Positions 12,476-51,830 of a DNA stretch of 64,000 bases are shown one piece after another. The notes beneath the pieces were generated by a model that worked only from the letters and a program-made list of their open reading frames with translations, did no database searches and was not told where the DNA came from. Position 1 is the first letter of the stretch. Each line of letters opens with the position of its first letter. Position numbers and translations under genes: made by a program. Source of the DNA: Flavobacteriales bacterium (GTDB lineage: Bacteria > Bacteroidota > Bacteroidia > Flavobacteriales_E > Vicingaceae); contig JAJCYO010000035.1 of the NCBI GenBank assembly GCA_029262875.1, positions 10,724 through 74,723 of the forward strand. The letters run 5' to 3'.

Positions 12476-13606
12476 CTATTCTTGGTTAAAAAAAATGCTT
12501 ATTTTTTCTACTATAAAATTAATTTCCTTGAACGTTAAATAATGGTGTAGAGGTAAGCGGATTAAAGTGTTATTAAACCTTGTTGCATTCGGGAAATCGT
12601 TGTTACTCTGTTTGCCAGAATGGAATTTGCTCTGATGTAGTGGGTAAAAATGTTTTACAGCTGAGATGTTGTTCTTTGCTAAATAATCAATTAATTCATT
12701 GGTGTCATTTTCATTTTGAACAGTAATAAAAAAGGTGTGATTATTTGAGGTAGCGTTTGAATTGATTTCGGGCAATTTAAATGTTGAACCTGAAGCTAAA
12801 CCTTTTAAAGCATTAAAATAATGATCCCATAATTTTTTTCTATTTTGAGAAACCACATCAATATCTTGTAATTGAGCATACAAAAATATAGCATTAATTT
12901 CTGATTGAAAGAAAGCCAACCCTAAACCAACACTTTCATAATGAGGTAAATTGTATTGCTTAAAAGAAGCTCGGTTTGTACCATATTCCCGAGCAATATT
13001 AGCTTTTTCGATTAAATTAAGGTTATTAATAGCAATCAATCCACCTTCTCCACAAGTAATGTTTTTGGTGTAATGAAATGATAAGACACTAATGTCACCA
13101 AAAGAACCCAAGGGCTTGTTTTTGTAATAGGCATCAATACACTGAGCTGCATCTTCAATTAGATAAAGGTCATGTTGTTTGCATAGTGCTAAAATTTCAT
13201 TCATATCACATGCAACACCTCCATAATGCATTATCATTACTGCTTTCGTATTAGGAGTAATTAGTTCTTTGACATGTTCAGGACTTATATTTGGATAGTT
13301 TTTATCACAATCCGCTAAAACAACTTTAACCTTTGAAATGATAAAAGGGTTAGGGCACGTGGAGAAAGTATAGCTTGGAATAATAATTTCATCTTCAGGT
13401 TGTAGGTCTAAAGTCAGCATGGCCATTTCGATGGCTGAAGTACAACTCGGTGTTAAATAACATTTGTTGAAACCATATTTTTCTTGAAAGAATGACTGAC
13501 ATAGCTTAGTGTATTGTCCATCACTTTCAATACCACTTTCTGATATAGCAGAAGAAATTAGCTTTTCTTCATTTCCAGAGATATAAGGCTTATTAAATTT
13601 TATCAC
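12476..13606 (-). CDS. WecE/DegT-family PLP aminotransferase (dTDP-4-amino-4,6-dideoxyhexose type)
   Basis: 376 aa. 'KFNKPYISGNE...LTPSCTSAIEMA...IIPSYTF...HYGGVACDM...IEDAAQ...SFHYTKN' is collinear with E. coli WecE, including the PLP-lysine motif. Confidence 0.85.
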   Translation of the reverse strand: MIKFNKPYISGNEEKLISSAISESGIESDGQYTKLCQSFFQEKYGFNKCYLTPSCTSAIEMAMLTLDLQPEDEIIIPSYTFSTCPNPFIISKVKVVLADCDKNYPNISPEHVKELITPNTKAVMIMHYGGVACDMNEILALCKQHDLYLIEDAAQCIDAYYKNKPLGSFGDISVLSFHYTKNITCGEGGLIAINNLNLIEKANIAREYGTNRASFKQYNLPHYESVGLGLAFFQSEINAIFLYAQLQDIDVVSQNRKKLWDHYFNALKGLASGSTFKLPEINSNATSNNHTFFITVQNENDTNELIDYLAKNNISAVKHFYPLHQSKFHSGKQSNNDFPNATRFNNTLIRLPLHHYLTFKEINFIVEKISIFFNQE

Positions 13607-13729
13607 AACACTAAAGTAAATATTATTCCTTTCCAGAAAAAAATAGAAGACTAAGAATATGATTTTTAATTTTAATGTTCATTTATTTAAACTTTTAAAG
13701 TACCTTAGTTTTAATCAAAAAATTAAGAA

Positions 13730-14776
13730 TTGGTATATATAAATGCAATAAGTAGTTATTTCCCAAAAAAGACTTTAGACAATAAAGAGATTATTGAAGC
13801 CTATGTAAAGTTTTGTGATCCTTCAGAGAAAAAAGAAATCACAGAAGAGGACATTTTTAATCAATGCGGGATAAGGAAAAGGTATGCAGCTGAAATTGAA
13901 GAGACGGCAAAAGATATAGGTAATAAATCTGTAGAAAAGCTCTTTGAAGAATGGGATATTGATAGAGATAGTATAGAGTATATCATCTTTATTTCTGATG
14001 CATTGGATTATAAAGGGCCTACTACTGCATGTGTTATGCAGCATGATTTAAGATTGCCTGAAGCATGTGGAGCAATTGATGTTTTACATGGCTGTACGGG
14101 ATATATCTATGGACTTAGTTTGGCGAAAGGGTTAATTGTCTCAGAACAATGTAACAATGTATTAATCGTTACAGCGGATACACCATCAAAAGTAGTACAT
14201 CCTGCTGATATTGATTTAAGTGCAATTTTTAGTGATGCTGCTGCAGCTACTTTAGTATCTAATCAAAAGATGGAAGGCAAACTTAATTTTGAAGTGTCAA
14301 ATTTTATATTTGGTACAGATGGAAAAGGGGAAAAGAATCTTTTTGTTGAACGATCCGCAACCAAAAATCCGGCTGATGTTGCATGGCTTAAACAACATGA
14401 ACATCTTCCTGGTGGATTAAAAAGGGGGAGAATGTTTATGAATAGTCCACAAATATTTTTGTTTGCGTTGAGAAAAGTGCCACAATTGATAGATCAAGTT
14501 TTAAATAAAAATAATGTTAAATTTGAAAAAATAGATTATTTTGTTCTTCATCAAGCCAATGGGAAAATGTTAGACTTTATTCGTAAAAGACTAAAAATTT
14601 CTGAAGAAAAGTTTATTATAAATATTGAAAATATTGGCAACACCGTTTCTGCTACAATACCTATAGCTTTAAAAGAAATGGCAGATGAGAAAAGTGTTTT
14701 AAGGGAAAAGAACAAAGTATTGTTAGGCGGATTTGGAATAGGATATTCATGGGGAGGAACAATAATAACAGTTTAA
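13730..14776 (+). CDS. KAS III (FabH)-like condensing enzyme
   Basis: 348 aa with a TTG start. The Cys/His/Asn triad contexts 'HGCTGYIYG', 'LHQANGKM' and 'NIGNTVSATIP' are present. Confidence 0.85.
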   Translation: MVYINAISSYFPKKTLDNKEIIEAYVKFCDPSEKKEITEEDIFNQCGIRKRYAAEIEETAKDIGNKSVEKLFEEWDIDRDSIEYIIFISDALDYKGPTTACVMQHDLRLPEACGAIDVLHGCTGYIYGLSLAKGLIVSEQCNNVLIVTADTPSKVVHPADIDLSAIFSDAAAATLVSNQKMEGKLNFEVSNFIFGTDGKGEKNLFVERSATKNPADVAWLKQHEHLPGGLKRGRMFMNSPQIFLFALRKVPQLIDQVLNKNNVKFEKIDYFVLHQANGKMLDFIRKRLKISEEKFIINIENIGNTVSATIPIALKEMADEKSVLREKNKVLLGGFGIGYSWGGTIITV

Positions 14777-14794
14777 AAAAATAGAAAAATAACC

Positions 14795-15031
14795 ATGGAA
14801 GATATATTTGAATTTATTAAGAAGATAGAATTTGAAATTGATGAAATTGATGAAGGGATGCTACAACCAGAAACTAATTATAGAGAAATGGAGGGGTGGA
14901 GTTCAATGCTCGGCTTGATATTTATTGCATTAATTGACACAGAATATGATGTTACCATAAATGGTGAGGAATTAATAAATTGCGCTACAATACAAGATCT
15001 TTATGATGTTGTTAAGGCAAAAAAACAGTAA
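14795..15031 (+). CDS. Acyl/peptidyl carrier protein (phosphopantetheine-binding)
   Basis: 78-aa acidic protein with 'GWSSM' in the position of the (D/W)S(L/M) phosphopantetheine attachment motif. It lies between two KAS III genes, and its stop abuts the next ATG. Confidence 0.7.
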   Translation: MEDIFEFIKKIEFEIDEIDEGMLQPETNYREMEGWSSMLGLIFIALIDTEYDVTINGEELINCATIQDLYDVVKAKKQ

Positions 15032-16087
15032 ATGGGGTTAACAACTATTCCAAATATTAGTATAAAAGCAATTGCGGCATGTGTTCCCAAGAAAGAGGAG
15101 AGTAACTTTGATTATTCGTTATTGACTGAGTCAGAACAAAAATTATTAGTAAAAACTACAGGAATTGAAAAAAGAAGAGTGGCATCAGAATCACTTTGCA
15201 CCTCTGATATGTGTTTTGAATCGGCTGAAAAAATAATAGAAGAGCTTAACATTAACAGAGCCGAAATTGATGTTTTAATATTAGTATCTCAAACCATTGA
15301 CTATTTTTTACCTGCAACGAGCATTATTTTACAAGATAGGCTAAAACTATCTAAAAATACAGTTGCATTTGATATCGTTTTGGGATGTTCAGGATATGTC
15401 TATGGACTTTCTGTGATTAGCAGTTTAATGAGTAGTGGTAATTTCAAAAAAGGACTTCTATTGGTGGGAGATAAATCAACTTTTTCATTGTCAAAAGAAG
15501 ATAAAAGTACTTACCCATTGTTTGGAGATGCAGGAACAGCTACTTATCTTGAATATGATCCAGAAGCTATTCCAATTGACTTTAACTTACAAAGTGATGG
15601 GAGTGGCTATGATGCGATAATAATACCCGATGGAGCTACTCGTTCTCCTTGGACACCTGAATCGGATGAGATGATAGACCTTGGAGTGGGGATAAAAAGG
15701 AGTAAAAGAAATTTATGGTTAGATGGAATAGAAGTATTCAATTTTTCTTTGAGGGAGGCTCCGCCCAATGTTAAAGAACTATTGTCGTATAACAATACAG
15801 ACATAGAAGATTATGATTATTATTTGTTTCATCAAGCAAATAAATTAATGAATGAATCGATAAGAAAGAAGCTAAAAATAACACCTGAAAAAGTACCTTA
15901 TTCATTGCAAAATTTTGGGAATACGAGTTCGGGGTCTATCCCTTTAACTATGGTCACTGAATTGGGCGATAAACTGGGAAAACCAACAAACTTATTATTA
16001 TCTGCATTTGGAGTAGGGCTAAGTTGGGCATCTGCAGCTATTAAAAATGCAGAAATAAAATGTTTACCTTTAATAGAAGTCGATTAA
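15032..16087 (+). CDS. KAS III (FabH)-like condensing enzyme, second copy
   Basis: 351 aa with triad contexts 'LGCSGYVYG', 'FHQANKLM' and 'NFGNTSSGSIP'. Confidence 0.85.
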   Translation: MGLTTIPNISIKAIAACVPKKEESNFDYSLLTESEQKLLVKTTGIEKRRVASESLCTSDMCFESAEKIIEELNINRAEIDVLILVSQTIDYFLPATSIILQDRLKLSKNTVAFDIVLGCSGYVYGLSVISSLMSSGNFKKGLLLVGDKSTFSLSKEDKSTYPLFGDAGTATYLEYDPEAIPIDFNLQSDGSGYDAIIIPDGATRSPWTPESDEMIDLGVGIKRSKRNLWLDGIEVFNFSLREAPPNVKELLSYNNTDIEDYDYYLFHQANKLMNESIRKKLKITPEKVPYSLQNFGNTSSGSIPLTMVTELGDKLGKPTNLLLSAFGVGLSWASAAIKNAEIKCLPLIEVD

Positions 16088-16088
16088 T

Positions 16089-16841
16089 ATGAGTACGCCA
16101 TTTCATTTACATAATAAAGTGATATTAGTTACTGGAGCATCTTCAGGGATTGGTAAGCAAATAGCAATTAGTGCTAATGAAATGGGTGCGGATGTTATCA
16201 TAACAGGAAGGAGTAAGGAACGATTAGAAGAGACGTTTAAATCTCTAAAAAAGGGTAATAACGGTCAGTTAATTGCCGATCTTCAAAATCAGGAAGAACT
16301 CAATCAATTGGTTGAAAGCCTTCCCGAATTAGATGGAATAGTTCATTGTGCAGGAATTGTTAAACCATTTCCAATAAAATTTCTTACTCAAGAAAAAATT
16401 ACAGAAACTTTTGATGTTAATTATAGCATTCAATTGTTATTAATGGCCCAAATTTCACGTAAAAAGAAGTTGAAGAAAAATGCATCCATTGTGTTTTCAT
16501 CGTCTATTTCAGCAGCTCACCCTCATAAAGGAGGAGCTTTGTATTCAGGGTCAAAGGCAGCTTTGGAATCGTTCAGTAAAGTAATTGTTTTGGAGTTTTC
16601 TTATTTGAAAGTTCGTTCAAACTGTATCGCTTCAGCAATGGTAAAAACACCTATGTATGAATATGCTCAGCAACAAGGCACAAAAGAACAAATGGATGAA
16701 CATGTTAATAAATATCCATTAGGAGTTGGGTTACCAGAAGATGTTTCTAACGCTGCAGTTTTCTTATTGTCAGATGCTTCGAGGTGGATGACAGGTCAAA
16801 CGATTACACTGGATGGAGGGTTTTTATTAGGAGATTTTTAA
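16089..16841 (+). CDS. Short-chain dehydrogenase/reductase (FabG-like ketoreductase)
   Basis: 250 aa with the Rossmann motif 'VTGASSGIGKQIA' and the catalytic motif 'YSGSKAALESF'. Confidence 0.85.
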   Translation: MSTPFHLHNKVILVTGASSGIGKQIAISANEMGADVIITGRSKERLEETFKSLKKGNNGQLIADLQNQEELNQLVESLPELDGIVHCAGIVKPFPIKFLTQEKITETFDVNYSIQLLLMAQISRKKKLKKNASIVFSSSISAAHPHKGGALYSGSKAALESFSKVIVLEFSYLKVRSNCIASAMVKTPMYEYAQQQGTKEQMDEHVNKYPLGVGLPEDVSNAAVFLLSDASRWMTGQTITLDGGFLLGDF

Positions 16842-17770
16842 TGGATAAAATAACTAAAATATCTGTGGTTATTCCTGTTTTTAACAGTGAAAATGCCATT
16901 CCTGAATTAATACAACGGTTAATTAAAACCTTTAAAACACTGAAAGAGCATACACTTGAAATTGTGATGGTGAACGATGGCAGTACAGATAACAGTTGGG
17001 CTGTATTATTGCAAGAAAAACAAAAGTATCCAGAAGTGATAAAGGCAATTAACTTAACCAAGAACTATGGACAACACAATGCAATTTTATGTGGATTCAA
17101 TTTTTGTGTTGGCAACTACATTGTTACTATGGATGATGATCTACAGCATATTCCTGAGGAAATAATTAAATTGATTGAGAAACAACAGGAAACCGATGCA
17201 GACATAACATATGGAATATATCAAACTAAACAACATTCCATGATTAGGAACTTTGCAAGTTCTGTTGTGAGAAATACTTCCGATTTTAAATCACAGAACA
17301 AAGAGGGGGGCTCATCGTTTCGTTTAATAAAAAAGGAGCTTGTTAATACAATTATAGAACAGCATCAAAATCATTTTTTGTTTTTAGATGCTATTTTGAA
17401 TTGGTACACTGGAAATGTTAAAACTGTTCAGGTTCAACACCAAGTTAGAGAAAAGGGAAGATCAGGATATACGTTATTCAAACTTTTTTCCATTTATCTT
17501 AATGTTTTATATTATTATAGCACTACTCCTTTAAAAGTGATAATTTATGGCGGTTTATTATCATCTATTGTTTCTTTTCTAATAGGGTTAAAATTTATTT
17601 ATAAGAAATTGATGTATGATGTTCCTCTTGGGTATACATCTATTATTGTGGCGATCATGTTCAGCACAAGCCTCGTTCTTTTTTGCCTTGGAATAATTGG
17701 GAACTATTTATACAAGTTATACCAAATGCAACAAAACAAACCACCATATTCTATCAAAAAGATTATTTAA
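16841..17770 (+). CDS. GT2 polyprenyl-phosphate glycosyltransferase (GtrB/ArnC/DPM1-like)
   Basis: The ATG at 16841 overlaps the SDR stop (TAATG). 'VVIPVFNSE...VNDGSTDNS', DxD 'TMDDDLQH' and two C-terminal TM helices match the GtrB/ArnC architecture. The ORF-track start at 16784 is rejected. Confidence 0.8.
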   Translation: MDKITKISVVIPVFNSENAIPELIQRLIKTFKTLKEHTLEIVMVNDGSTDNSWAVLLQEKQKYPEVIKAINLTKNYGQHNAILCGFNFCVGNYIVTMDDDLQHIPEEIIKLIEKQQETDADITYGIYQTKQHSMIRNFASSVVRNTSDFKSQNKEGGSSFRLIKKELVNTIIEQHQNHFLFLDAILNWYTGNVKTVQVQHQVREKGRSGYTLFKLFSIYLNVLYYYSTTPLKVIIYGGLLSSIVSFLIGLKFIYKKLMYDVPLGYTSIIVAIMFSTSLVLFCLGIIGNYLYKLYQMQQNKPPYSIKKII

Positions 17771-18450
17771 TGATTATTTCTAAATACGGTATATCATTAG
17801 TTAGATTAGCTCTTAACGATGTTGAGTTGATTCGAGAAAAACGTAATTTACCAGAAATTAGAAATAGCATGATTTTTAAAGAATTCATTACACTTGAGAT
17901 GCAAATGGATTGGTTTAATTCAATTAATAACATCTACAATAATTATTTCATTATTGAATATGACAATAAAAAGGTAGGGTTGATAAATGGTAAAAATATA
18001 GACTATGAAAAACGCACTTCTGAAGGAGGGGTTTTTTTTTGGGAAGATTTTGGAACCACTAAGTTTATACCTGCACTTTGTTCTACTATAATGAATGATT
18101 ATACTTTTTTAATCAATGAATTTTATGGTAGCTACATAAAAGTGTTAAATAATAATTCAAGTGCAATTTCATACAATAAACAAATTGGGTATAAAAAAAC
18201 CGAGAGTTTAGAAACGGATGGTTCTTTTTCTTGGTATGAGCTTACTAAAGAAGGTTATCTTAGAAATAGTAATAGAATAAGAAAGGGAATAGGTGTTCTA
18301 ACGGGAGATGTTAGCCCTCTTGATATTGCCAATTTTTCGTTTGTAAATGATACTGATTATGATTTAGTGGAACTTTATAGCCCCCTTCCTCAATATTTAA
18401 AAGATAAAATTAATATTGCGTTAAGAAGAGAAAATCGTATTTTAATATAA
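17770..18450 (+). CDS. GNAT-type N-acyltransferase, PseH-like
   Basis: The ATG at 17770 overlaps the GT2 stop (TAATG). The pattern 'LVRLALNDVELIREKRNLPEIRNSM...ITLEMQMDWFNSI...YFIIEYDNKKVGLI' resembles PseH-type aminosugar N-acetyltransferases. Assigned by eye only. Confidence 0.5.
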   Translation: MIISKYGISLVRLALNDVELIREKRNLPEIRNSMIFKEFITLEMQMDWFNSINNIYNNYFIIEYDNKKVGLINGKNIDYEKRTSEGGVFFWEDFGTTKFIPALCSTIMNDYTFLINEFYGSYIKVLNNNSSAISYNKQIGYKKTESLETDGSFSWYELTKEGYLRNSNRIRKGIGVLTGDVSPLDIANFSFVNDTDYDLVELYSPLPQYLKDKINIALRRENRILI

Positions 18451-18464
18451 GCCATTAAGCTGTT

Positions 18465-19217
18465 ATGGAAAACCCTTGGTATTGTTTTTTGCATGAAAAA
18501 AGTCTAACAATTGAAGATGAAACTTATTTTAATTCAGAACAATTTGAGTGGTCAAAATTGATAGAAGATAATTTCCAGATAATAAATGATGAAATTATTG
18601 ACTACTTGAGTAAAAATGAAAGTGAGTTAAAGCCATATTTTGCCATAGACATGATGAATGCTCCAAAAAAATGGAAAGCATTTAGTTTTTACTTTTGGGG
18701 ATTACCAATGTCAAAAAAAAGAATAAGATCTTGTTCAAAAACAATATCTATTTTAGAAAAGATTCCACATATACTAACGGCTTCAGTTAGTATATTAGAA
18801 CCAAATTCTGAAATAAAACCGCATTATGGTGATACCGATGCGGTATACCGCTGTCATATGCCTATTGTTGTCCCGTCACCATTGCCAGATTGTGGGTTTA
18901 GGGTAGGTTATGAAGACAGGTCATGGGAAAAGGGTAAATTGATGGTGTTTAATGATGCAGCTTATCATAAAGCATGGAATTTTACTGATAAAAGAAGGGT
19001 GATTTTATTGTTTGATGTACTTAAACCTGAATTAGCGACCCAAAAAAAATGGATTTGTGCTTTAGTAAGAGGGAGTGTTTATTGGCAGATGGTTGTTAAG
19101 CCCTTTCCGATGGTTAGTAAAATAAAAAATAAATTCACAAAAACAGTTTGTATGTTCTTTGCTTCTTTAGTCTATGTTTGGTTGTCTTTTTCAAATAAAA
19201 AATCAGCATGGTTATAA
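18465..19217 (+). CDS. Aspartyl/asparaginyl beta-hydroxylase family (LpxO-like) dioxygenase
   Basis: 250 aa. 'IKPHYGDTDAVYRCHMPIVVP...WEKGKLMVFNDAAYHKAWN...RRVILLFDV' matches the Asp/Arg hydroxylase family pattern. There is a hydrophobic C-terminal segment. Confidence 0.7.
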   Translation: MENPWYCFLHEKSLTIEDETYFNSEQFEWSKLIEDNFQIINDEIIDYLSKNESELKPYFAIDMMNAPKKWKAFSFYFWGLPMSKKRIRSCSKTISILEKIPHILTASVSILEPNSEIKPHYGDTDAVYRCHMPIVVPSPLPDCGFRVGYEDRSWEKGKLMVFNDAAYHKAWNFTDKRRVILLFDVLKPELATQKKWICALVRGSVYWQMVVKPFPMVSKIKNKFTKTVCMFFASLVYVWLSFSNKKSAWL

Positions 19218-20260
19218 TAAGTAGAGAGTTTAAACCAATCGAATATTTTTTTTGAAATAAAACCAGTAAAATCTCTCAAAAAGAAGGGTGATTTGTAATA
19301 GGTTTTTATAACCCAGAAATCTATTTTATATCGAACGTTACCTAAAAAAGACCTGTATCGTAACAATAAAGATGATTTGTTGGTTGTAGGAAAATAATCG
19401 TATGTTTTTGCATAATCGCCACATATTAAATCTAATAATTCAACATCTTGAGTTGATAAAGATTTTTTCCATTTATTTATTTGTTTAGTATTGATTGGAT
19501 TCACTAAATTTTTATGAATAGAATCTAATGCTTCAAAATCATTTTCTTTCTTTATAGATGAAATTTTCTCATGAAAGTTTAACATTTCTTGATTATAATC
19601 TATACCTAAAAAAGTGCAAATTTCTTTTGTTTTTTGTTTAGGGGAGGTTACTAAATCTATATATCTGATGGTGTAAAAATAGTTAGGTTTATTTTTTTTA
19701 ATTTTTTCGATACCTAAATTAAATGCTAACCAGCCATTTCCTAAAGCGGCTGTCGCTTTTCGAGTAAAAGAGGCTCGGTTTGAAACGACATTATCTCGAT
19801 AATCTCTAATAATCTGTATAAATTTTGCATCAGGAAAGATTTCTAATAAATCTTCAATAAAGATAGAGTATATAGGGTTTTTGTCACCTATTAAGTTGAT
19901 TTTTTCTTTATCGAAAGGAGAAGGATAGCTTAAATAAATAATCTTACAAATGGTAGCAAAACTTAGTTTTTCAATAGGATACGTTTTTATTTTCTTTGTT
20001 AATTCAACTTTATTAATACCCCAAAAGGTGTTAAATTTTTTATCTTTATATAAATCTTGAATAAGTTCATCAACAAGAATTGAATTCCAATGCGTAATTC
20101 TAAAATATTTTTGTTTGAGATGAATAATTAAACGAGATTCGATAGGTAGAATTACATTTTCATTGGCGTCTAAAACATTCTGTAGTAATGTTGTACCAGA
20201 TCTTCCTCTACCCACAATAAATACAAAAGGAATTTTTTCTATTTCATCAAGATCTATCAT
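19172..20260 (-). CDS. PAPS-dependent sulfotransferase
   Basis: 362 aa with the 5'-PSB loop 'VGRGRSGTTLL' and the 3'-PB-like 'IRDYRDNVVS'. Confidence 0.8.
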   Translation of the reverse strand: MIDLDEIEKIPFVFIVGRGRSGTTLLQNVLDANENVILPIESRLIIHLKQKYFRITHWNSILVDELIQDLYKDKKFNTFWGINKVELTKKIKTYPIEKLSFATICKIIYLSYPSPFDKEKINLIGDKNPIYSIFIEDLLEIFPDAKFIQIIRDYRDNVVSNRASFTRKATAALGNGWLAFNLGIEKIKKNKPNYFYTIRYIDLVTSPKQKTKEICTFLGIDYNQEMLNFHEKISSIKKENDFEALDSIHKNLVNPINTKQINKWKKSLSTQDVELLDLICGDYAKTYDYFPTTNKSSLLLRYRSFLGNVRYKIDFWVIKTYYKSPFFLRDFTGFISKKIFDWFKLSTYYNHADFLFEKDNQT

Positions 20261-20312
20261 ATAAGGAGCGTGTAAACAGTTTTAGATGAACTAAAGGTAA
20301 AATTAATATTTA

Positions 20313-20320
20313 TATATTTG
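20313..20320 (+). promoter_or_regulatory. Candidate Bacteroidota -7 promoter box for the TMTC-like gene pair
   Basis: Perfect TAnnTTTG (tatatttg) 22 nt upstream of the ATG at 20342. No clear -33 TTG found. Confidence 0.35.
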
Positions 20321-20341
20321 TTCGCAAATAACCTTACATGA

Positions 20342-22330
20342 ATGAAAATAAATATTGCTAATATTAAGCATTCACGGTTTTACATTTTAATTGTTGTGTT
20401 CACATTTATAATCTATGGAAATGGAATCAACAATGAATACTCCTTAGATGATAATATAGTCGTGGAGAATAACAAATTAGTCGTTGGGGGATTTAAAGCA
20501 ATACCAAAAATATTTTCTTCTCGTTATGCTGAAGATAAAGACCAAACCTATGATTATCGACCATTGGTCATCGCTTCTTTTGCAATAGAGAAACAGTTCT
20601 TTAAAAAATTACCAGCTTCACAAACAAAAGCTCAGAAATTAAAAAAGGATAAATTAACACAGGCCAACATAAGCCATTTTATTAATGTGTTGCTGTATGC
20701 ACTAACATGTGTATTAATTTTTCAAGTGCTATCTAATGTACTTAGTGAATACAACATCATTTTGACATTAGTTATAACCTTAATTTTTTTAGTACACCCC
20801 TTACATACGGAAGTTGTTGATAATATTAAAAGTAGAGATGAGTTATTGATGTTTTTAGGGATGTTACTTTCATTAAAGTATTACTTAAAATATGCCAAGA
20901 CTTCAAATGTTAAATTTTTAATCATAGCACCTATCTTTGTTTTAATGTCTTTCTTTTCTAAAAAAAATGGTTTTGCAATTGCTGGAGTCTTACCAGTTGT
21001 TTTGTATTTCAAATCTTATGATTATAAAAAAATTCTATTTTCAATGTTCACTCTTTTTGCCATTTTTGGTGTTTTTGTTCTTATAAAAAAGGGTTTATTA
21101 ACTTCTAAAGGAGTTAGGAATTTTAAATACTTTGAGAACCCTTTAATCTTTTCAGATAATTTTATGGATAGGATTACAGTTGGGCTCTATTGCTCTTTGT
21201 TTTATTTGGAAATGTTGTTTATTCCTAAGGATTTATCATTTTATTATGGGTATAATCAAATACCAATGGCTACCTGGTCTAATTGGCGCGTATGGGTTAG
21301 CGTTGTTGTGTTTGTACCATTAGGTGCTTTTGGGTTATTACAATTCTATAAGAGAAAGGTTTTAGGTTTAGGGATTGTTTTATGGTTAGGGATTATGTTA
21401 AGTGTTGTGAATGTAATATTTCCGATAGTGGGTATTGTGGGAGATAGATTCACGTATACATTTTCGTTAGGTTTTTGTATAGTAGTAGGTTATTTACTTT
21501 TAAAACTTTTTAAGGTTGACTTAGATAAAAAGGCATATAAGGTCAATCTATCAACTGGGTTTTTAGCTGTTTTCGCAGGTATATTAATTATATATTCAGG
21601 AAGAACAATAGCTCGGAACCCTGATTGGCATGATCAGATGTCCCTCTATACACACGATGTTGAGCATTTAACAGAATCTGCTAAAGCAAATGCGTTATGG
21701 TCAAATACGTATTATCCTATTTTGGCAAAAGAGATTAAAAATAATCCCGCGAATCCTGAAAATGCAGCAAACATTCAAAAACTAATTTTCCATTACGAAG
21801 AAGCGCTCAGAATAGATTCCAACTACTTAACAAGTATAAATAATTTAGGATCCGTCTATGTCAACTTTCTTACTGATTATGATAAGACAATTTACTACTG
21901 TGAAAAAGCTGTAAGTATGGACCCAGAATATTTTGAAGCCCACTTAAATTTAGCCAATTCATACAGTGTAAAAGGAAATTCTGAAAAAGCTTTAGAACAC
22001 TATTCCAGGGTTATAGAAATAAACCCTAATTATATGCAAGGCTATGAAGCATTCAACAATTCGGCTAATAAATATGGGAAGATAACAGAAGCAATAGAAA
22101 TCTTAAAGATCTCAGCTACAAAAGTTGAACAGCCAAAAAACATATACCTAAACATAGCCAACTTACATAGTTTGGACAATTATAATGTGAGCCAGTCCAT
22201 TGTCTATTTTGTTAAGGCTTATGAAATTGACAAAACGGATAAGAAGTTGTGTAGCCATATTTCAAACTTGTATAATTCAATTGGAGATACAGAAAAGGCA
22301 AATTTTTACTTTTCATTATGTGCACAATAA
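20342..22330 (+). CDS. TMTC-like GT-C-fold glycosyltransferase candidate with C-terminal TPR domain (copy 1)
   Basis: 662 aa with about 10 or more TM segments and an acidic 'DD' (res 36-37) in the first loop after TM1. Also 'YDYRPLV', 'SHFINVLLYALTC', a DUF1736-like 'HPLHTEVVDNIKSRDELL', and C-terminal TPR repeats ('AHLNLANSYSVKGNSEKALEHYSRVIEINPNY'). Confidence 0.7.
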   Translation: MKINIANIKHSRFYILIVVFTFIIYGNGINNEYSLDDNIVVENNKLVVGGFKAIPKIFSSRYAEDKDQTYDYRPLVIASFAIEKQFFKKLPASQTKAQKLKKDKLTQANISHFINVLLYALTCVLIFQVLSNVLSEYNIILTLVITLIFLVHPLHTEVVDNIKSRDELLMFLGMLLSLKYYLKYAKTSNVKFLIIAPIFVLMSFFSKKNGFAIAGVLPVVLYFKSYDYKKILFSMFTLFAIFGVFVLIKKGLLTSKGVRNFKYFENPLIFSDNFMDRITVGLYCSLFYLEMLFIPKDLSFYYGYNQIPMATWSNWRVWVSVVVFVPLGAFGLLQFYKRKVLGLGIVLWLGIMLSVVNVIFPIVGIVGDRFTYTFSLGFCIVVGYLLLKLFKVDLDKKAYKVNLSTGFLAVFAGILIIYSGRTIARNPDWHDQMSLYTHDVEHLTESAKANALWSNTYYPILAKEIKNNPANPENAANIQKLIFHYEEALRIDSNYLTSINNLGSVYVNFLTDYDKTIYYCEKAVSMDPEYFEAHLNLANSYSVKGNSEKALEHYSRVIEINPNYMQGYEAFNNSANKYGKITEAIEILKISATKVEQPKNIYLNIANLHSLDNYNVSQSIVYFVKAYEIDKTDKKLCSHISNLYNSIGDTEKANFYFSLCAQ

Positions 22331-22336
22331 TTTCTT

Positions 22337-24325
22337 ATGAAATCTACATCAGTTTCTAAACTAAATAAAATAATATACGGAAGTATAGTTGTTTTGTCAT
22401 TTTTGATTTATGGAAATAGCATTAAAAATGGGTATGCTATAGATGATGGTTTTGTAACAACTACCAATCCAGAAACCCCAAACCTTAGAATTGAAAAAGG
22501 AATAAAAGGAATACCAGAAATATTTTCAACACATTATGTTGAATCAGAAAAACAGAGTTTTGAATACCGGCCAATAGTCCTTGTTACCTATGCATTAGAG
22601 TATCATTTTTTTGAAAGTAACCCTAGTATTAGTCATTTTATAAATGTGTTAGTTTATGCATTAACATGTCTCTTGTTATTTATTGTACTTTCTAATCTTT
22701 TAAGAAAATACCATCTTGTTTTGCCTCTGCTTATTACTTTTTTATTCATAGTTCATCCTATCCATAGTGAAGTGGTGAACAATTTGAAAAGTAGAGATGA
22801 GTTGCTTTCCTTTTTCTTTGGAATAAGTTCATTGTATTTTTTTCTCAAACAAATAGAATTTGGCAAATGGCAGAATTTGCTTTTGGGAATACTATTTTTC
22901 ACGTTAGCTTTATTATCTAAAAAAACGGCTATTATATTTATAGCAATTATTCCATTAACGATTTATTTTTTCACAGATGCTAAATTGAAGAATGTACTTT
23001 TTTATGGCCTTGTTGCACCTATTGTTTTCTTATGCTATGCCATAACATTGAAGTTTGTATTTCAGGCTCCAGGAATGAGAGAGTATGCCTTTTTTGAAAA
23101 TCCATTGTTTTATGAACCTGATTTTTTTAAAAGGATTCCTATGGCATTTTATACAGCAGGGTACTACCTGAAACTACTTGTACTTCCTCACCCTCTTTCA
23201 TCCTATTATGGGTTCAAGACTATTTCTTTGGTGAGTTGGTCATCAGTCTTAATGTGGTGTTCCTTAATTTTTCATGTTGCACTTGGAATTTATGCCCTAT
23301 TGGGACTTAAAAAGAAAAGAATTATTTCCTATGGAATTCTCATTTATTTAATCGGTATTTTCCCTTTCATTAATCTCGTCACACCGGTTGTAGGTGTCGT
23401 AGGGGAACGATTTATTTACCTTGCATCTTTCGGTTTTTGTATAGGGTTGGCGTATCTTTTGTTATTGACGTTTAAGGTAGGTTATGCTAACAAAACTACG
23501 AAATGGAGTTATTTTAAGCTCGCTTTCAAAGTAACAACGGTTATCATTTTATGCATTTACTCGGTAAAAATAGTTTCAAGGAATTCTGACTGGAAGGATG
23601 AACTTACCTTATTCAGAAATGATGTGGCCCATTTTGAAAATTCATGCAATCTAAACTATATCACAGCAAATGCTTTGTCTAACAAAATAGCTCATACACC
23701 AGCGGGGGTTGAAAGAAATGCATTAATACAAGAAGCGACTTTTTATTACAAAAAGACAGTAGAATTAATGGCTGAAGGGATAAAAAAATACCCACAAGAT
23801 TACATTACATCAAATAATCTTGGAACCATTTATGTAGATATTTTTAAGGATGCAACTAATGCTCAACCTCTCTTTAAAAAAGTGATAGAAACTAACCCTG
23901 ACAACCTGGAAGGACGATATAATTATGGATTTTGTTATGAAAGTAGAAATTTGCCAGACTCGGCCATTACCTGGTACGAAAAAATGCTTTCGGATCAAAT
24001 AAAGTACTTTCCAGCTTATATTCGTCTTCATGATTTGTATTACAAAAAGCAAGACTATAATAAAGCAATTGTTAGTGGTAAAAAAGTGCTTTCTCTGTAT
24101 CCTGAAAAAATAGAGCTTTACATTAACTTAGGTAATTCATATATGTTAAGTGGTGATACATTGAGTGGATTAGAATATTTTGAAAAGGCCGCGGCAAAAC
24201 CACCTTTAGATTATGTCTTACTACAAAATGTTGCTAATGTTTTTAAAACAATTGGAAACAATTCAAAAGCAGCTGAATACCAAGAGAAATCAAAAATAGT
24301 AATGGGCCAGACTCAATATAAATAG
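22337..24325 (+). CDS. TMTC-like GT-C-fold glycosyltransferase candidate with C-terminal TPR domain (copy 2)
   Basis: Also 662 aa and collinear with copy 1: 'DD' at res 36-37, 'FEYRPIV', 'SHFINVLVYALTC', 'HPIHSEVVNNLKSRDELL', 'GERFIYLASFGFCIGLAYLL', and a TPR tail. Confidence 0.7.
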   Translation: MKSTSVSKLNKIIYGSIVVLSFLIYGNSIKNGYAIDDGFVTTTNPETPNLRIEKGIKGIPEIFSTHYVESEKQSFEYRPIVLVTYALEYHFFESNPSISHFINVLVYALTCLLLFIVLSNLLRKYHLVLPLLITFLFIVHPIHSEVVNNLKSRDELLSFFFGISSLYFFLKQIEFGKWQNLLLGILFFTLALLSKKTAIIFIAIIPLTIYFFTDAKLKNVLFYGLVAPIVFLCYAITLKFVFQAPGMREYAFFENPLFYEPDFFKRIPMAFYTAGYYLKLLVLPHPLSSYYGFKTISLVSWSSVLMWCSLIFHVALGIYALLGLKKKRIISYGILIYLIGIFPFINLVTPVVGVVGERFIYLASFGFCIGLAYLLLLTFKVGYANKTTKWSYFKLAFKVTTVIILCIYSVKIVSRNSDWKDELTLFRNDVAHFENSCNLNYITANALSNKIAHTPAGVERNALIQEATFYYKKTVELMAEGIKKYPQDYITSNNLGTIYVDIFKDATNAQPLFKKVIETNPDNLEGRYNYGFCYESRNLPDSAITWYEKMLSDQIKYFPAYIRLHDLYYKKQDYNKAIVSGKKVLSLYPEKIELYINLGNSYMLSGDTLSGLEYFEKAAAKPPLDYVLLQNVANVFKTIGNNSKAAEYQEKSKIVMGQTQYK

Positions 24326-24458: not shown

Positions 24459-24962
24459 ATGAAAAATAAGAAAGGATTAGTAATTGCCATATTATTGGCT
24501 ATAATGATAACCCCTCAGTTTAGCTTTTCGCAAGCTGCTAATAGAGAAACTACTGCAGCACATGGATATGGAGAGTCATGGATGCCAATTAATAAATTTA
24601 AAAATCCAAGCAGTAGTACAGAAACAAATGCCAAAGTTGGCCCTGCACCCTTAATTAATATCTTAAATGGGGTTTCTTTCTATGTGAAAAATACCAAGTG
24701 TAATACTGTAAATGTTGCACTGCTAAAACTTATAAATACAAATAATTATCCTGTTAAAGTGTCATGGAAAATGGCTCCAGAGTCTCCCGTTTCATTTGTT
24801 GAGGTTCCTGCTAGGTATACTTCAGAAGGAGCTTGCGCTAAGACGAAGAAGACAGAAACAACTGATTTGGTTATTGAGCTGTTATCAGGAACAGCTGCTG
24901 AAAAAGCAAAAAAGAAACGTTACATACTTTCAAGTATAACAGTTACTCAAGTAAAAAAATAA
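24459..24962 (+). CDS. Small secreted hypothetical protein
   Basis: 167 aa with signal peptide 'MKNKKGLVIAILLAIMITPQFSFSQA'. Located 26 nt upstream of adhesin 1. No family recognised. Confidence 0.55.
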   Translation: MKNKKGLVIAILLAIMITPQFSFSQAANRETTAAHGYGESWMPINKFKNPSSSTETNAKVGPAPLINILNGVSFYVKNTKCNTVNVALLKLINTNNYPVKVSWKMAPESPVSFVEVPARYTSEGACAKTKKTETTDLVIELLSGTAAEKAKKKRYILSSITVTQVKK

Positions 24963-24988: not shown

Positions 24989-27900
24989 ATGAAAAACCCC
25001 ACCATAGTCATTTTATCTTCTTTATGTTTATTGTTTAGCATTTTTCTAAGCGGTACTTTAAAAGCACAAACAGCTTCGGTTACTATAAATTATACCGGGT
25101 TTCAAGCATGTGGTGGATGTACTGTTTGTGGGCAAGATTATTGGTGTTTTAATACACTTTCAAGCTGGTGTGGAAACACAGCTGCTTGTGGAACACAAAG
25201 TTTTACAGACCCAGTTCCTCCAGGGAATATTATTACCAACATATCTATTAACTATTTTTCTGGACAATGTAATGGAGGTAGTTTAACCGCAACCATCAAT
25301 GGAAGTACTTTCCCTACTGTAAATGAAGGAAGTTTGGGTTGCCCATGTTCTTCAAACCCATGCGGTGTTGCTGCTTCTACGGGATCAACATTTCCATGTG
25401 GTATTCCAAGTTATAACTATGGAGCGTCAAACAATTTTCAATTATGTACTGGGGCCGATGTGTGCGTTAATAATGCAGTACTGACCATGACTTATGTCCC
25501 CGCAAATCAAGCGTCACCTGCAACTCAGCCTGGAGCTATATCTGGGACTAGTCCAGTTTGTGTTGCAGTAGCTCAAAATTATTCAATACCAGCTGTGGCT
25601 AACGCAAGTTCTTATACATGGACGGTCCCCGCAGGGTGGACAATAAACTCTGGACAAGGGACAACTGGGATAAATGCCACACCTGGATCTTCAGGTAATA
25701 TTTGTGTTACAGCAAGTAATTTATGTGGAACAAGTGCTTCCACATGCTTTAATGTTACAGTGGGGCCACCAATTACTCCAACCTTTACACAGGTAAATCC
25801 AATCTGTAGTGGCAGTCCATTAGGAGCTTTGCCAACAACATCAAATAATGGAATTACAGGAACGTGGTCGCCAGCGATGAATAATACATCAACAACCCTA
25901 TATACCTTTACCCCTACAGCAGGCTTGTGTGCTAATACAACAACGATGACCATAACGGTTAACCCTAATGTTACTCCAACCTTTACACCGGTTGCGGCAA
26001 TATGTAATGGGGATCCATTGGGAGCTTTACCAACAACTTCGAATAATGGAATAACAGGAACTTGGTCACCAGCAATCAATAATACGTCAACGACTTTGTA
26101 TACGTTTACACCGACAGCTGGAGCATGTGCAACGACAGCAACAATGACGATAACAGTAACTCCTAATACAACACCAACTTTTACTCAAGTAAATCCAATA
26201 TGTGATGGAGATCCATTGGCAGCTTTGCCAACGACATCAAATAATGGAGTAACAGGAACGTGGTCACCAGCTGTAGATAATACTATTACAACGTTGTATA
26301 CCTTTACACCGTCAGCTGGATTATGTTCTCCTACAACAACAATGACGATAACAGTAACACCAAATACCACCCCAACCTTTACACAAGTAAATCCAATATG
26401 TGATGGAGATCCATTGGCAGCATTGCCAACCACATCAAATAATGGAGTGACAGGAACATGGTCACCAGCGATCAATAATACGTCAACGACTTTGTACACG
26501 TTTACACCTACGGCAGGAGTATGTGCTACAACAGCTACAATGACAATAACGGTAACACCGAACACGACCCCAACCTTTACACCAGTAGCTGCAATATGTG
26601 ATGGAGACCCATTGGCCGCTTTACCAACCACATCAACTAATGGAGTAACAGGGACATGGTCACCAGCGATTAATAATACGTCAACAACTTTGTATACGTT
26701 TACACCAACAGCTGGATTATGTGCTACAACAACAACGATGACGATAACAGTTAATCCAATTGTTGCACCAACATTTACACAGGTAAATGCAATATGTGAT
26801 GGAGGAGCTTTGGCCGCTTTACCAACCACATCAACTAATGGAGTAACAGGAACATGGTCACCAGCAATCAATAATACATCAACAACCTTGTACACATTTA
26901 CGCCTATAGCAGGAGCATGCGCAACAACAACAACGATGACAATCACAGTTAATCCTAATGATGATCCAAATTTTGCCTATGCATCAGGAACCTATTGTTT
27001 AACAGGAACCGATCCGTTGCCATCGGTAATAACAACACCAGGAGGTACATTTACCATTACTGCGCCTGGGTCAATTAATCCAACAACGGGGTTAATTGAT
27101 TTGGGAACATCTGGATTAGGAGCATTTACCGTAACCTATAATACACCTGGAGCAAATCCATGCCCTTCTTCAACAACATTCTTAATTACAATAACAGCTG
27201 CACCGTCAGCTGGATTTAATTATGGTCAAGCAGCGTTTTGTCAAGATTCTATAGACCCTGTTTTAACTATGAATGCGGGAGCTGTTAGTGGAGTATTTAG
27301 TGCTACTCCAGGAGGGTTAACGATTGATGCAGCTGGAAATATAATTTTAGCATCAAGTACTCCTGGAATTTACACGATTTATAATAATGTTGCGTCAGCA
27401 GGAGGGTGTGCAGCGGCAGTAGATTCTACCACATTTGAAGTGTTGCAAGTAGATTCTGCTTTGTTTAATTATGGTAGTTCATCTTATTGTGTTAGTGGGC
27501 TTGATCCAATAGCTGCAATTACTGGAACAGCAGGCGGAATATTTACGATATCTGCACCTGGAGCTATTAACAGTGGGGATGGTACGATAGATTTAAGCAC
27601 ATCTGGGTTGGGAACATTTACAATCTATTATAATACAGCACCAGCTGGTAATGCTTGTCCTGCTCTTGATTCAATACAAATCACAATAGATTCAGTAAAT
27701 ACGATTACCCCTAACCCTATAGTGCCAATATGTGCAACTGACCCTTTAACACTTACTGCAACAGGTAGTGGTGTTGGAGTTATTACCTGGTACAGTGATG
27801 CAGGAGGAACAACTTCAATAGGAACAGGATCTCCTTTACTATTGTCAAATCCAGGCGTAGGAATATTTACTTATTATGTAAATAATGTTGGGTCTTGTTC

Positions 27901-28713: not shown

Positions 28714-29112
28714 TTGAATATGAAAGCCTTACAAATTAATTTAGCATTAGCAACAGCATTATTATTGACTTCTTTTTCAGTTAATGCACAATCTAATAAA
28801 ACCAAAGAAACTGCGGTAAAGCAAAGAACTGAAGCAAAACAACAGATAGAATTAAGCAAAGAAATACCAACTGCAAAAAAAACGGTTACGGTAAATGCAA
28901 CACCTGCACAAAGACCTGTAAAAGTATCTGACTACATGAGTTTAGAGAAAAAAATTATGGCATGGTCAATTGATGGTAAAATCCCTGCTACTTTACCTAA
29001 ACACAAAGAAGGACAAACGAAGGAACAATATACTGGAATTATCAGAGATTGGGCTAAGAATAATTTGAACTTAATTAAGAAAGAATATCACGCAAAAGTA
29101 CTTTCAAAATAA
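28714..29112 (+). CDS. Small secreted hypothetical protein
   Basis: 132 aa with signal peptide 'MNMKALQINLALATALLLTSFSVNAQ'. Lys/Thr-rich. Located 65 nt upstream of adhesin 2. Not visibly related to 24459-24962. Confidence 0.55.
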   Translation: MNMKALQINLALATALLLTSFSVNAQSNKTKETAVKQRTEAKQQIELSKEIPTAKKTVTVNATPAQRPVKVSDYMSLEKKIMAWSIDGKIPATLPKHKEGQTKEQYTGIIRDWAKNNLNLIKKEYHAKVLSK

Positions 29113-29177
29113 GCATTTAGCGATTTAGATTAGACATATTGCAGATCAATATATTGATTTCTCATACCCTAAAAAAC

Positions 29178-51224: not shown

Positions 51225-51830
51225 ATGGCTAGATATAGAGGTCCAAAATCGAAAATTGCACGTAAGTTCAGAGAACCAATCTTTGGACCTGATGCAGTAT
51301 TGGAAAAAAAGAATTATGGTCCAGGACAACATGGACCTAATAAGAGAAGAGGTAAGCAATCTGAATATTCTATTCAGTTAGCAGAAAAACAAAAGGCAAA
51401 ATACACTTATGGTATTTTAGAAAAACAATTTTCTAATTTATTTAAATCTGCTTCAAGAAAAAGAGGTATTACAGGTGAAGTGTTATTACAACTTTGTGAA
51501 TCACGCTTAGATAATGTTGTTTTTAGATTAGGTATTGCACCTACAAGAAGTGGCGCAAGACAATTAGTTGGACATAAGCATATTACTGTTAATGGACAAT
51601 TGGTTAACATCCCATCTTATTCAGTTAAGGAAGGTGATGTTGTAGGTGTTAGAGAGAAATCTCAATCATTAGAAGCAATTACTGCATCGTTAGCAGCTAA
51701 CCCAATGAACTTTGATTGGTTAGAATGGAATGAGACTCAAATGACAGGTAGATTTATTAATACGCCTGAAAGAACTCAGATTCCTGAAAATATCAAAGAA
51801 CAATTAATAGTAGAACTTTACTCTAAATAA
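51225..51830 (+). CDS. rpsD: 30S ribosomal protein S4
   Basis: 201 aa, '[15 protein letters not shown]'. Confidence 0.97.

Follow-up and report, generated by a model that had tools for sequence, protein, structure and literature searches.

A putative Gtr/Arn-type glycosylation locus with TMTC-like GT-C enzymes and co-inherited type-B adhesins in Flavobacteriales

Background

TMTC enzymes are, to our knowledge, known from eukaryotes only, where they mannosylate cadherins. TMTC1-4 have 11 transmembrane (TM) helices, an Asp-Asp (DD) loop, a DUF1736 region that forms the TM7-TM8 loop, and a non-cytoplasmic domain of tetratricopeptide repeats (TPR) (PMC7801869), while the general O-oligosaccharyltransferase of Bacteroidota is still unidentified according to a 2025 review (PMC12871550). 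Our search of the full-text literature, with subscription-only literature outside it, found neither a characterised bacterial member of TMTC, DUF1736 or GT105 nor a description of a bacterial system of the kind considered here. The subject of this work is a locus at positions 12476-24325 of a 64,000-nucleotide stretch (the window) of contig JAJCYO010000035.1, assembly GCA_029262875.1, from a Flavobacteriales bacterium of the Vicingaceae. It comprises eleven closely spaced genes, every one an open reading frame (ORF), that encode two TMTC-like glycosyltransferases of the GT-C type together with the putative enzymes of a donor-sugar pathway. A preliminary description made from the letters of the sequence had listed these eleven genes, and all of them, with their families and quoted motifs, were recovered at the same positions by Pfam and NCBIfam profile searches of the window ORFs and a motif check.

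The evidence supports assignment of the locus to Gtr/Arn-type lipid-carrier glycosylation, with TMTC-like, TPR-bearing GT-C enzymes, natural-product-like and variable donor tailoring, and genetic coupling to type-B adhesins. Two observations are new: every GT-C paralog has a small basic secreted protein and a type-B adhesin of its own with which it is inherited, and related loci exchange their tailoring genes.

The TMTC-like GT-C enzymes

The two GT-C genes encode 662-aa paralogs, A (20342..22330, + strand) and B (22337..24325, + strand), each with a TM domain and TPR. Paralog A contains HPLHTE and matches PF08409 (TMTC_DUF1736) with 32.9 bits, above the cutoff of 27, whereas B, which contains IDDG and HPIHSE, scores 21.6 bits (2e-4) and falls below that cutoff; B also has a weak PMT_2 match (2e-3). 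PF08409 is matched by 14 of 16 homolog TM domains at E <= 0.01, and LIFLVHPLHTE is much like LLFAVHPIHT in human TMTC3, a sequence whose AVHPIHT portion is quoted in PMC7801869. The TPR reported in the preliminary description are recovered in both proteins, and its TMTC/DUF1736-like assignment is above the Pfam cutoff in A and below it in B. An exact-sequence look-up of the window GT-C protein returned no record.

In an AlphaFold2 model of the full-length protein, built with 36 homologs (pLDDT 87.8, pTM 0.84), 11 long helices occupy the sequence as far as residue 429, and TPR repeats fill the remainder to the C-terminus. Because a Foldseek search with this model returned TPR proteins only, residues 1-462 were modelled alone (pLDDT 80.8, pTM 0.86). 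The 25 highest-ranking PDB matches of this TM-domain model are GT-C enzymes without exception; their probabilities lie between 0.87 and 1.0, and TMq reaches 0.50. The best are STT3 (6s7t, 1.7e-4, TMq 0.49) and the Chaetomium protein Pmt4 (9i5k, 4.5e-4, TMq 0.50); STT3 is matched in both the human and the yeast oligosaccharyltransferase (OST), and the other matches include yeast Pmt1/2, PglB, AftD, AftA, DPY19 and Emb. ArnT is not among the top fold matches. A search of the PDB with the TM-domain sequence profile gave noise only, with E-values of at least 0.19 to GPCRs.

The loop after TM1 contains D36 and D37, which do not vary among the 36 homologs at identities down to 34-38%; H155, E157, R165, D166, R259, E265, Y301-Y302-G303 and R369 are likewise invariant, and the DD motif is present in both A and B. 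A GT-C fold and conserved acidic residues in the first loop, on which the preliminary description had made its proposal depend, were therefore both found. A periplasmic location of both the DD loop and the TPR domain is predicted by the basic character of the N-terminus together with an odd count of TM helices. A and B share 39.5% of residues in the TM domain and 24.3% in the TPR domain, so the TPR domain has diverged more than the catalytic domain, the pattern expected of enzymes with a shared donor and different acceptors. Together, fold model and motifs support the 662-aa proteins as GT-C enzymes of TMTC type, with a predicted transferase activity.

Genes for a predicted acylated and sulfated donor sugar

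The first gene of the locus, divergent from the operon, encodes a WecE-type pyridoxal phosphate (PLP) aminotransferase (12476..13606, - strand; DegT_DnrJ_EryC1 1.3e-79) with an SFHYTK lysine motif at residue 176. It passes NF008687, the equivalog model for dTDP-4-amino-4,6-dideoxygalactose transaminase (414.6 bits, cutoff 375), and is the predicted synthase of dTDP-4-amino-4,6-dideoxygalactose (Fuc4N). The same protein scores 360 bits against TIGR02379, under its cutoff of 435, and its 175 bits against the ArnB model fall short of the 631 required.

The operon, on the + strand, opens with an acyl cassette. This consists of a KAS III-like condensing enzyme (13730..14776), likely the priming ketosynthase, with ACP_syn_III and ACP_syn_III_C domains and Cys121, His274 and Asn304 in context; a dedicated 78-aa acyl carrier protein (ACP) (14795..15031; PP-binding 26.1 bits, cutoff 20.8) with a GWSSM serine motif; a second KAS III-like enzyme (15032..16087) with the same two domains and its Cys, His and Asn present, which would carry out a second elongation; and a classical short-chain dehydrogenase/reductase (SDR) (16089..16841; adh_short_C2 3e-43, FabG models ~1e-35) with TGASSGIG and YSGSK motifs, predicted to be a 3-oxoacyl-ACP ketoreductase. 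In Flavobacterium psychrophilum, a ketosynthase, ACP, ketosynthase and ketoreductase are encoded in the same order by wfpC-D-E-F beside an N-acyltransferase, and these genes are the proposed builder of the 3,5-dihydroxyhexanoyl group shown by NMR on the Qui2NAc4N of the O-antigen (PMC6519341). As the window cassette has two condensing enzymes and one ketoreductase but no dehydratase or enoyl reductase, analogy to wfp suggests a short polyhydroxy acyl-ACP as its product, with an acyl chain of the 3-hydroxybutyryl or 3,5-dihydroxyhexanoyl type.

Following the cassette is a family 2 glycosyltransferase (GT2) of ArnC/GtrB type (16841..17770, + strand; Glycos_transf_2 1e-28), a predicted polyprenyl-phosphate glycosyltransferase with the motif MDDDL. 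The alignment of this protein to ArnC structures (1.5e-42) and to GtrB 5EKP (6.7e-39) covers its full length, including the C-terminal TM hairpin, which corresponds to two hydrophobic segments at residues 230-253 and 261-290. The protein fails the ArnC model (173 bits against a cutoff of 529) and matches the PgfS model at 6.5e-39. Based on the full-length alignment, the GT2 would load the finished sugar onto undecaprenyl phosphate. The next gene encodes a PseH-like GNAT N-acyltransferase (17770..18450, + strand; Acetyltransf_4 3e-5) that matches the PseH model TIGR03585 at 4e-12, below its cutoff; among the NCBIfam models only PseH and SpeG are matched, with no match to a WecD-type TDP-fucosamine acetyltransferase. 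The likely starts of the GT2 (ATG 16841) and the GNAT (ATG 17770) each overlap the preceding stop codon by 1 base, suggesting that both are translationally coupled to the acyl cassette.

The tailoring genes end with a hydroxylase and a sulfotransferase. The iron/2-oxoglutarate-dependent (Fe/2OG) hydroxylase (18465..19217, + strand) belongs to the Asp_Arg_Hydrox (OlsC/LpxO) family (PF05118 3.6e-40), matching the OlsC model (1.5e-32) better than the LpxO model (1.5e-16) and lying under the cutoff for both. The sulfotransferase (19172..20260, - strand; Sulfotransfer_3 1.2e-26, Sulfotransfer_1 3.6e-12) is of the type that uses 3'-phosphoadenosine-5'-phosphosulfate (PAPS) and contains GRGRSGTT and RDYRDNVVS. 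OlsC and LpxO are acyl 2-hydroxylases, and by analogy the window hydroxylase probably places a further hydroxyl on the acyl chain. Neither enzyme has a signal peptide or TM segment, which makes the hydroxylase cytoplasmic, and PAPS is cytoplasmic; tailoring must therefore come before flipping. We considered a role for the hydroxylase on the secreted adhesins like that of AspH on EGF domains and rejected it, as the enzyme is cytoplasmic.

These assignments largely uphold the preliminary description. The WecE-type aminotransferase is confirmed by NF008687, the GtrB/ArnC architecture of the GT2 by the structure alignment, its DxD motif and its two C-terminal TM segments, and the PseH-like GNAT by Acetyltransf_4 and PseH, although the latter is below cutoff. 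The idea of a carrier-protein-built N-acyl group gains from the gene order shared with wfpC-D-E-F. The hydroxylase had been called an LpxO-family enzyme, and this label needs a minor correction: membership in Asp_Arg_Hydrox stands, but the OlsC model, not LpxO, is the closer.

Conservation of the locus across Bacteroidota

We scanned one genome per GTDB species, which gave 471 GT-C relatives, and fetched the best 80 of the 471 loci (related loci are cited below by L numbers). Six-frame ORFs of the fetched loci were searched with the window proteins, and counts refer to the 66 species-level loci with at least 8 kb of flank. A GT2 lies beside the TMTC-like gene in 48/66 loci, a GT2 together with a GNAT in 44/66, and the full KAS-ACP-KAS-SDR-GT2-GNAT set in 35/66. 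KAS III-like enzyme 1 is kept in 41/66 loci and the ACP in 38/66; the sulfotransferase occurs in 37/66, the Asp_Arg_Hydrox hydroxylase in 28/66, and a WecE homolog in 10/66. Carriers include Vicingaceae, Flavobacteriaceae (Dokdonia, Mesonia, Aequorivita, Haloflavibacter), Saprospirales, Chitinophaga-like metagenome-assembled genomes (MAGs), and Bacteroidales/Lentimicrobiaceae; two of them are cultured, Vicingus serpentipes (GCA_007993035.1, L002) and Haloflavibacter putidus PLHSN227 (L039). Four individual context look-ups around GT-C homologs found the same cassette beside the TMTC-like gene in three (L001-L003), while the fourth, in a member of the Saprospiraceae (L004), has only a sulfotransferase, a family 4 glycosyltransferase (GT4) and large surface proteins. 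The conservation of gene neighbourhood that the preliminary description had put forward for checking is thus present, as the cassette and the GT-C gene are linked in several orders.

The smallest version of the locus is an island in Dokdonia (L030, with L031 similar), which lies between nqrA-F and apbE and contains only a divergent WecE gene, GT2, GNAT and the TMTC-like gene. This suggests that the aminotransferase, N-acyltransferase, polyprenyl-phosphate transferase and GT-C enzyme form the core, and that the acyl-ACP, hydroxylase and sulfotransferase genes are add-ons. We also considered an ordinary wzx/wzy O-antigen cluster and rejected it: Wzx, Wzy, an initiating phosphoglycosyltransferase and serial glycosyltransferase genes are absent from the window ORFs scanned, and the flanks are housekeeping genes. 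The linkage of the GT2 to a TPR-bearing GT-C and the four-gene island likewise depart from a wzx/wzy-embedded locus with no tie to TPR membrane proteins, the outcome that the preliminary description had named as fatal to its proposal.

The tailoring genes vary among related loci (L002, L003, L016, L025, L049, L054, L063, L064, L071, L088). Asp_Arg_Hydrox genes number one to three in a locus, as do sulfotransferases, and there may be as many as four Cupin_8/JmjC hydroxylases; other swapped genes encode a carbamoyltransferase, an MBOAT with a DUF1574-like partner, B12-radical-SAM enzymes, Acyl_transf_3, and a fatty-acyl-AMP-ligase (FAAL) fused to a carrier domain. Such variability suggests that surface properties diversify rapidly in Flavobacteriia of marine and fresh waters. 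Candidate flippases occur in some related loci only, and include EamA proteins (L064, L071), a 539-aa polytopic protein (L003, L025), and a MATE/Wzx-like protein (L088). In the window, the convergent hydroxylase and sulfotransferase genes overlap by 46 nt at their 3' ends (19172-19217), and this convergent layout is repeated in many related loci, for example L007, L009, L011, L026 and L027.

Adhesins and small secreted proteins linked to each paralog

Downstream of the locus, on the + strand, are two pairs of genes, each comprising a small basic secreted protein and a giant adhesin of the type B class exported by type IX secretion (T9SS). The first small protein (24459..24962; 167 aa, pI 9.7, 12% Lys) has a signal-peptide-like N-terminus and pairs with paralog B, and is followed by adhesin 1 (24989..28456; 1155 aa; PKD_6, PKD, CHU_C 1.7e-20; TIGR04131 44.9 bits). 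The second (28714..29112; 132 aa, pI 9.9, 18% Lys) pairs with paralog A and precedes adhesin 2 (29139..35162; 2007 aa; Ig_7, PKD, CHU_C 3.4e-19; TIGR04131 50 bits). Both adhesins, which are candidate acceptors, pass TIGR04131, the T9SS type B sorting domain model (cutoff 35 bits). The 167-aa and 132-aa proteins have no Pfam or NCBIfam family match.

Adhesin 1 contains 18% Thr, 0.6% Lys and six 66-aa repeats, and adhesin 2 contains 19% Thr, 0.2% Lys and ten such repeats; both have ~27% Ser+Thr, ~1% Glu and a pI of ~4. The repeats are encoded by 198-nt tandem units with 81-83% identity, in six copies at 25774-26959 and ten at 30684-32661, each unit specifying a 66-aa Thr-rich module (...TPTFTPVAAICSGDPLAALPTTSNNGVTGTWSPAINNTSTTLYTFTPTAGLCATTTTMTITVNPNV). 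The GC content of the adhesin genes is 41-42%, compared with 33% for the genome. General Bacteroidota O-glycosylation of the adhesins is unlikely, as they have only 7 and 12 D[ST][AILVMT] sites despite their Ser+Thr content. ORFs of 612, 155 and 253 aa also run antisense to the repeat arrays (30608-32446 and 25612-26946, both - strand); these are most likely artefacts of repetitive, stop-poor sequence, not genes.

The pairing of enzymes with secreted proteins recurs in other genomes. Orthologs of paralog A are followed by a 132-aa-type protein and an adhesin with an N-terminus of the adhesin 2 type in L002, L006, L009, L016, L019, L020 and L021, the small protein being downstream of A orthologs in at least seven loci, with E-values for the adhesin 2 orthologs downstream of A orthologs down to 1e-286. 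Orthologs of paralog B are followed by a 167-aa-type protein and an adhesin of the adhesin 1 type in L005, L020, L050 and L070, and in L058 the arrangement is truncated. Other GT-C paralogs lie beside adhesin genes, far from the cassette (L033, L040, L042, L081, L084), and in some Flavobacteriaceae (L029, L035, L038, L039) a 132-aa-type gene immediately precedes the GT-C gene and no adhesin is within range. Among 82 loci we counted 45 adhesin-like ORFs, 31 of which are at most 700 bp and 41 at most 3 kb from the cluster edge, where the mean free flank is 8.3 kb.

The giant beta-sandwich-repeat adhesins pointed out in the preliminary description are therefore real, having PKD/Ig and CHU_C domains and a T9SS type B sorting domain, and its suggestion that they are the target is strengthened by the conserved triads of enzyme, small protein and adhesin. 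We regard the adhesins as acceptors of the GT-C enzymes as a serious possibility that stops a little short of probable. It is possible that the small basic secreted proteins serve as adaptor, chaperone or acceptor. The arrangement fits a donor pathway that would serve several acceptor-specific GT-C paralogs, by analogy with Gtr systems.

Proposed pathway and alternative explanations

We propose a three-component-type extracytoplasmic glycosylation pathway with a heavily tailored donor; all of its steps are inferred, and we consider it reasonably probable. In this pathway the WecE-type aminotransferase would convert dTDP-4-keto-6-deoxyglucose to a dTDP-4-amino-4,6-dideoxyhexose, with the RmlA/RmlB steps encoded elsewhere, while the two KAS III-like enzymes, dedicated ACP and ketoreductase would build a short polyhydroxy acyl chain. 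The PseH-like GNAT would then move this chain to the 4-amino group, the OlsC/LpxO-type hydroxylase would add a hydroxyl, and the PAPS sulfotransferase would sulfate a hydroxyl. Still in the cytoplasm, the ArnC/GtrB-type GT2 would put the tailored sugar on undecaprenyl phosphate, and the lipid-linked sugar would be flipped by a transporter encoded outside the window. In the periplasm, the two TMTC-like GT-C enzymes would use the lipid-linked monosaccharide, the first loop with its DD motif catalysing transfer and the TPR domain picking the acceptor. The acceptors would most likely be Ser/Thr residues of the two type-B adhesins, within their Thr-rich Ig/PKD-like repeats and with a separate adhesin for each paralog; the small basic secreted proteins would possibly act as adaptors or chaperones. 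Computation, as far as it goes, supports the Arn/Gtr-like reading of the preliminary description, and the two points at which sequence analysis could have overturned it, the fold and the genomic context, came out in its favour; we hold the Arn/Gtr-like logic of the locus to be probable, with appreciable doubt.

Several observations weigh against this pathway. Among the window ORFs outside the ribosomal-protein block from 35362, as scanned against Pfam, there is no flippase, no RmlA/RmlB and no NDP-hexose 4,6-dehydratase; the preliminary description had noted the absence of a visible flippase and dehydratase. The GNAT does not reach the cutoff of any named family, and acyl-ACP is no more than its predicted substrate. 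Only 12/82 related loci have a WecE homolog within 10 kb, so the sugar may differ among lineages. The TM-scores of the GT-C model to solved GT-C structures are moderate, at ~0.5. A GT2-centred metagenome scan, a weak test of the reverse linkage, found only two close loci with usable flank (L087 and L088), and both keep the cassette but have no TMTC-like gene in the available DNA, L087 ending at a contig end; most of its matches are distant ArnC-like genes that neighbour DegT aminotransferases in the manner of Arn operons.

An adhesin-like gene lies near only about half of the loci, and the Dokdonia island has none, so a glycan or lipid A acceptor remains a live rival. In that case the same donor would be transferred, as by ArnT or GtrC, to lipid A/core, O-antigen or another surface polysaccharide, and the adhesins would be bystanders or indirectly affected. 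The similarity of the GT2 to ArnC, its closest relative, and the membership of the hydroxylase in the LpxO/OlsC lipid-hydroxylase family agree with such an acceptor, and TPR are also found in polysaccharide-export proteins, the PgaA and PrsT models being weakly matched. However, each GT-C paralog is co-inherited with its own adhesin type and small protein, adhesin genes are tightly clustered at locus edges, and several genomes have multiple GT-C paralogs, each by an adhesin and away from the cassette (for example L050, L058, L070 and L081). Moreover, the hydroxylase is soluble and cytoplasmic whereas LpxO is membrane-bound, and the best fold matches are to protein-modifying GT-C enzymes, although this counts for little. 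On balance we judge a glycan or lipid acceptor to be rather unlikely. A more far-reaching reading is a dedicated Bacteroidota protein O-glycosylation system of TMTC type, in which each paralog would modify the almost uncharged, Thr-rich Ig-like repeats of its own adhesin, perhaps via the small lysine-rich protein as a periplasmic adaptor, with a polyhydroxyacyl-amido, sulfated 6-deoxyhexose assembled on undecaprenyl phosphate; this full version is advanced tentatively. If true, it would give the adhesins a tunable polyanionic coat, with the swappable tailoring genes as a surface-diversification toolkit, and would be a prokaryotic counterpart of the animal TMTC-cadherin system.

Other explanations change the donor or the role of the GT-C enzymes. 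A plain hexose, such as mannose from undecaprenyl-phosphate mannose (Und-P-Man), could be transferred while the acyl, hydroxylase and sulfotransferase genes make a separate sulfated N-acyl lipid or polysaccharide side group. JGI labels homologs of these enzymes protein O-mannosyl-transferase, PF08409 is matched, some GT-C paralogs are far from any cassette, and OlsC-like hydroxylases and GNAT-fold N-acyltransferases serve aminolipid pathways. We nevertheless find this improbable, because the GT2 and GNAT stay with the GT-C even in the four-gene island that lacks the other tailoring genes and are coupled to the acyl cassette by 1-nt overlaps, the aminotransferase passes a sugar-nucleotide equivalog model, and the locus has no lipid-backbone genes. 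Finally, the TMTC-like proteins might be inactive TPR scaffolds or chaperones for export or folding of the giant adhesins, beside a sugar pathway for an unrelated O-antigen. Their link to adhesins and small secreted proteins would suit such a role, as would the score of paralog B under the Pfam DUF1736 cutoff, but DD, HPxH[T/S]E, RD, R259, E265 and R369 are shared without change by both paralogs and distant homologs, conservation is higher in the TM domain than in the TPR domain, and linkage to the polyprenyl-phosphate GT2 is tight; a purely structural role is thus very improbable.

Genomic setting

The locus is flanked by housekeeping genes: upstream are UvrD, DUF4290 and an EPSP_synthase-family gene (MurA-like), and downstream, from 35362, are rpsL-rpsG-fusA and the S10/spc ribosomal operons. 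In several Vicingaceae-type genomes the locus also lies beside the rpsL-rpsG-fusA operon, as in L003 (19307-21989) and L087 (3624-5747). The window has a low GC content (~33%) and contains an S4-Flavobacteria ribosomal leader, indicating a member of the Flavobacteriia, and the nearest relatives of its proteins are in Vicingaceae and other Flavobacteriales MAGs. This leader (RF03141, 51169-51202, + strand; 47 bits, gathering score 35.2) is the sole Rfam match in the window and lies upstream of a 201-aa ORF (51225-51830), presumably rpsD. No tRNA genes were found in the window, and a scan for sigma-70 promoters and terminators, a model that does not cover Bacteroidota promoters, gave the same counts as shuffled sequence.

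Two other ORFs are recorded here. A type A T9SS cargo protein of 570 aa (56244-57956, + strand), with a Por_Secre_tail C-terminal domain and an SBBP beta-propeller repeat, is unrelated to the type-B adhesins. A 429-aa ORF (2095-3384, - strand) between ThiH-like radical-SAM and UbiD-family genes has no Pfam match at E <= 1e-4.

Significance and comparison with known systems

If the proposed pathway is correct, a bacterial TMTC-like enzyme encoded with its donor pathway and adjacent candidate acceptors would provide a tractable model for substrate choice by TPR-bearing GT-C enzymes, and the locus would represent a second route of protein O-glycosylation in Bacteroidota. It would also connect glycosylation with the T9SS type-B adhesins, about whose surface biology little is understood, and a polyhydroxyacyl amide that is built on an ACP, hydroxylated and sulfated would be a new kind of chemistry for a glycan.

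With TMTC1-4 (CAZy GT105), the locus GT-C enzymes share 11 TM helices, non-cytoplasmic TPR, DD after TM1, HPxHT, a putative DUF1736 loop between TM7 and TM8, and the GT-C fold. The acceptors of TMTC1-4 are adhesion proteins with beta-sandwich repeats, the cadherins, and the candidates at the locus are adhesins with Ig/PKD-like repeats. However, TMTC1-4 use dolichyl-phosphate mannose (Dol-P-Man), whereas the locus enzymes are bacterial and periplasmic and their predicted donor is an undecaprenyl-phosphate-linked (Und-P) N-acylated, possibly sulfated amino-deoxyhexose; given the context of WecE, GNAT and acyl cassette, their activity probably differs from transfer of mannose from Dol-P-Man to cadherins. 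Their DUF1736 scores are also marginal (33 and 22 bits), while human TMTCs score E < 1e-30 (PMC7801869).

The Gtr systems (GtrA-GtrB-GtrC; Citrobacter ORF12-15, PMC11127046) have in common with the locus a polyprenyl-phosphate GT2 and a periplasmic GT-C, and in them a single donor pathway can supply several GT-C paralogs, each specific for its acceptor, as we propose here. Unlike Gtr, the locus has no flippase gene in the window, has acyl-ACP, hydroxylase and sulfotransferase tailoring, bears TPR on its GT-C enzymes, and is predicted to modify protein instead of O-antigen. The Arn pathway shows the same order of DegT aminotransferase, N-acylation, ArnC-like GT2 and GT-C, but the locus has a WecE equivalog as its aminotransferase and lacks ArnA, ArnD and ArnEF, a formyltransferase/decarboxylase and a deformylase, and ArnT, and its predicted sugar is a 6-deoxyhexose while that of Arn is a pentose. 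The locus also matches the WecE equivalog (NF008687) of the Fuc4NAc branch of enterobacterial common antigen (ECA) synthesis but lacks a WecD-type acetyltransferase, and so is not the ECA pathway.

The acyl cassette is likened by gene order to F. psychrophilum wfpC-D-E-F-G, where KAS-ACP-KAS-ketoreductase also has an N-acyltransferase and an amino-sugar aminotransferase nearby. There, a PglD-homolog acyltransferase is used and the sugar enters a Wzx/Wzy O-antigen repeat, in contrast to the GNAT, GT2 and GT-C of the locus (PMC6519341). The relation between enzyme and acceptor is paralleled by S. mutans Pgf (PgfS-PgfM1-PgfE-PgfM2) and streptococcal GtrB/GT-C systems, in which a GtrB-like GT2 and GT-C enzymes glycosylate Thr-rich adhesins encoded nearby. 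Pgf is Gram-positive and uses plain N-acetylhexosamine and hexose (HexNAc/Hex) donors, and the locus differs from it in having TPR on the GT-C enzymes, acyl and sulfo tailoring of the predicted donor, and an association with the T9SS.

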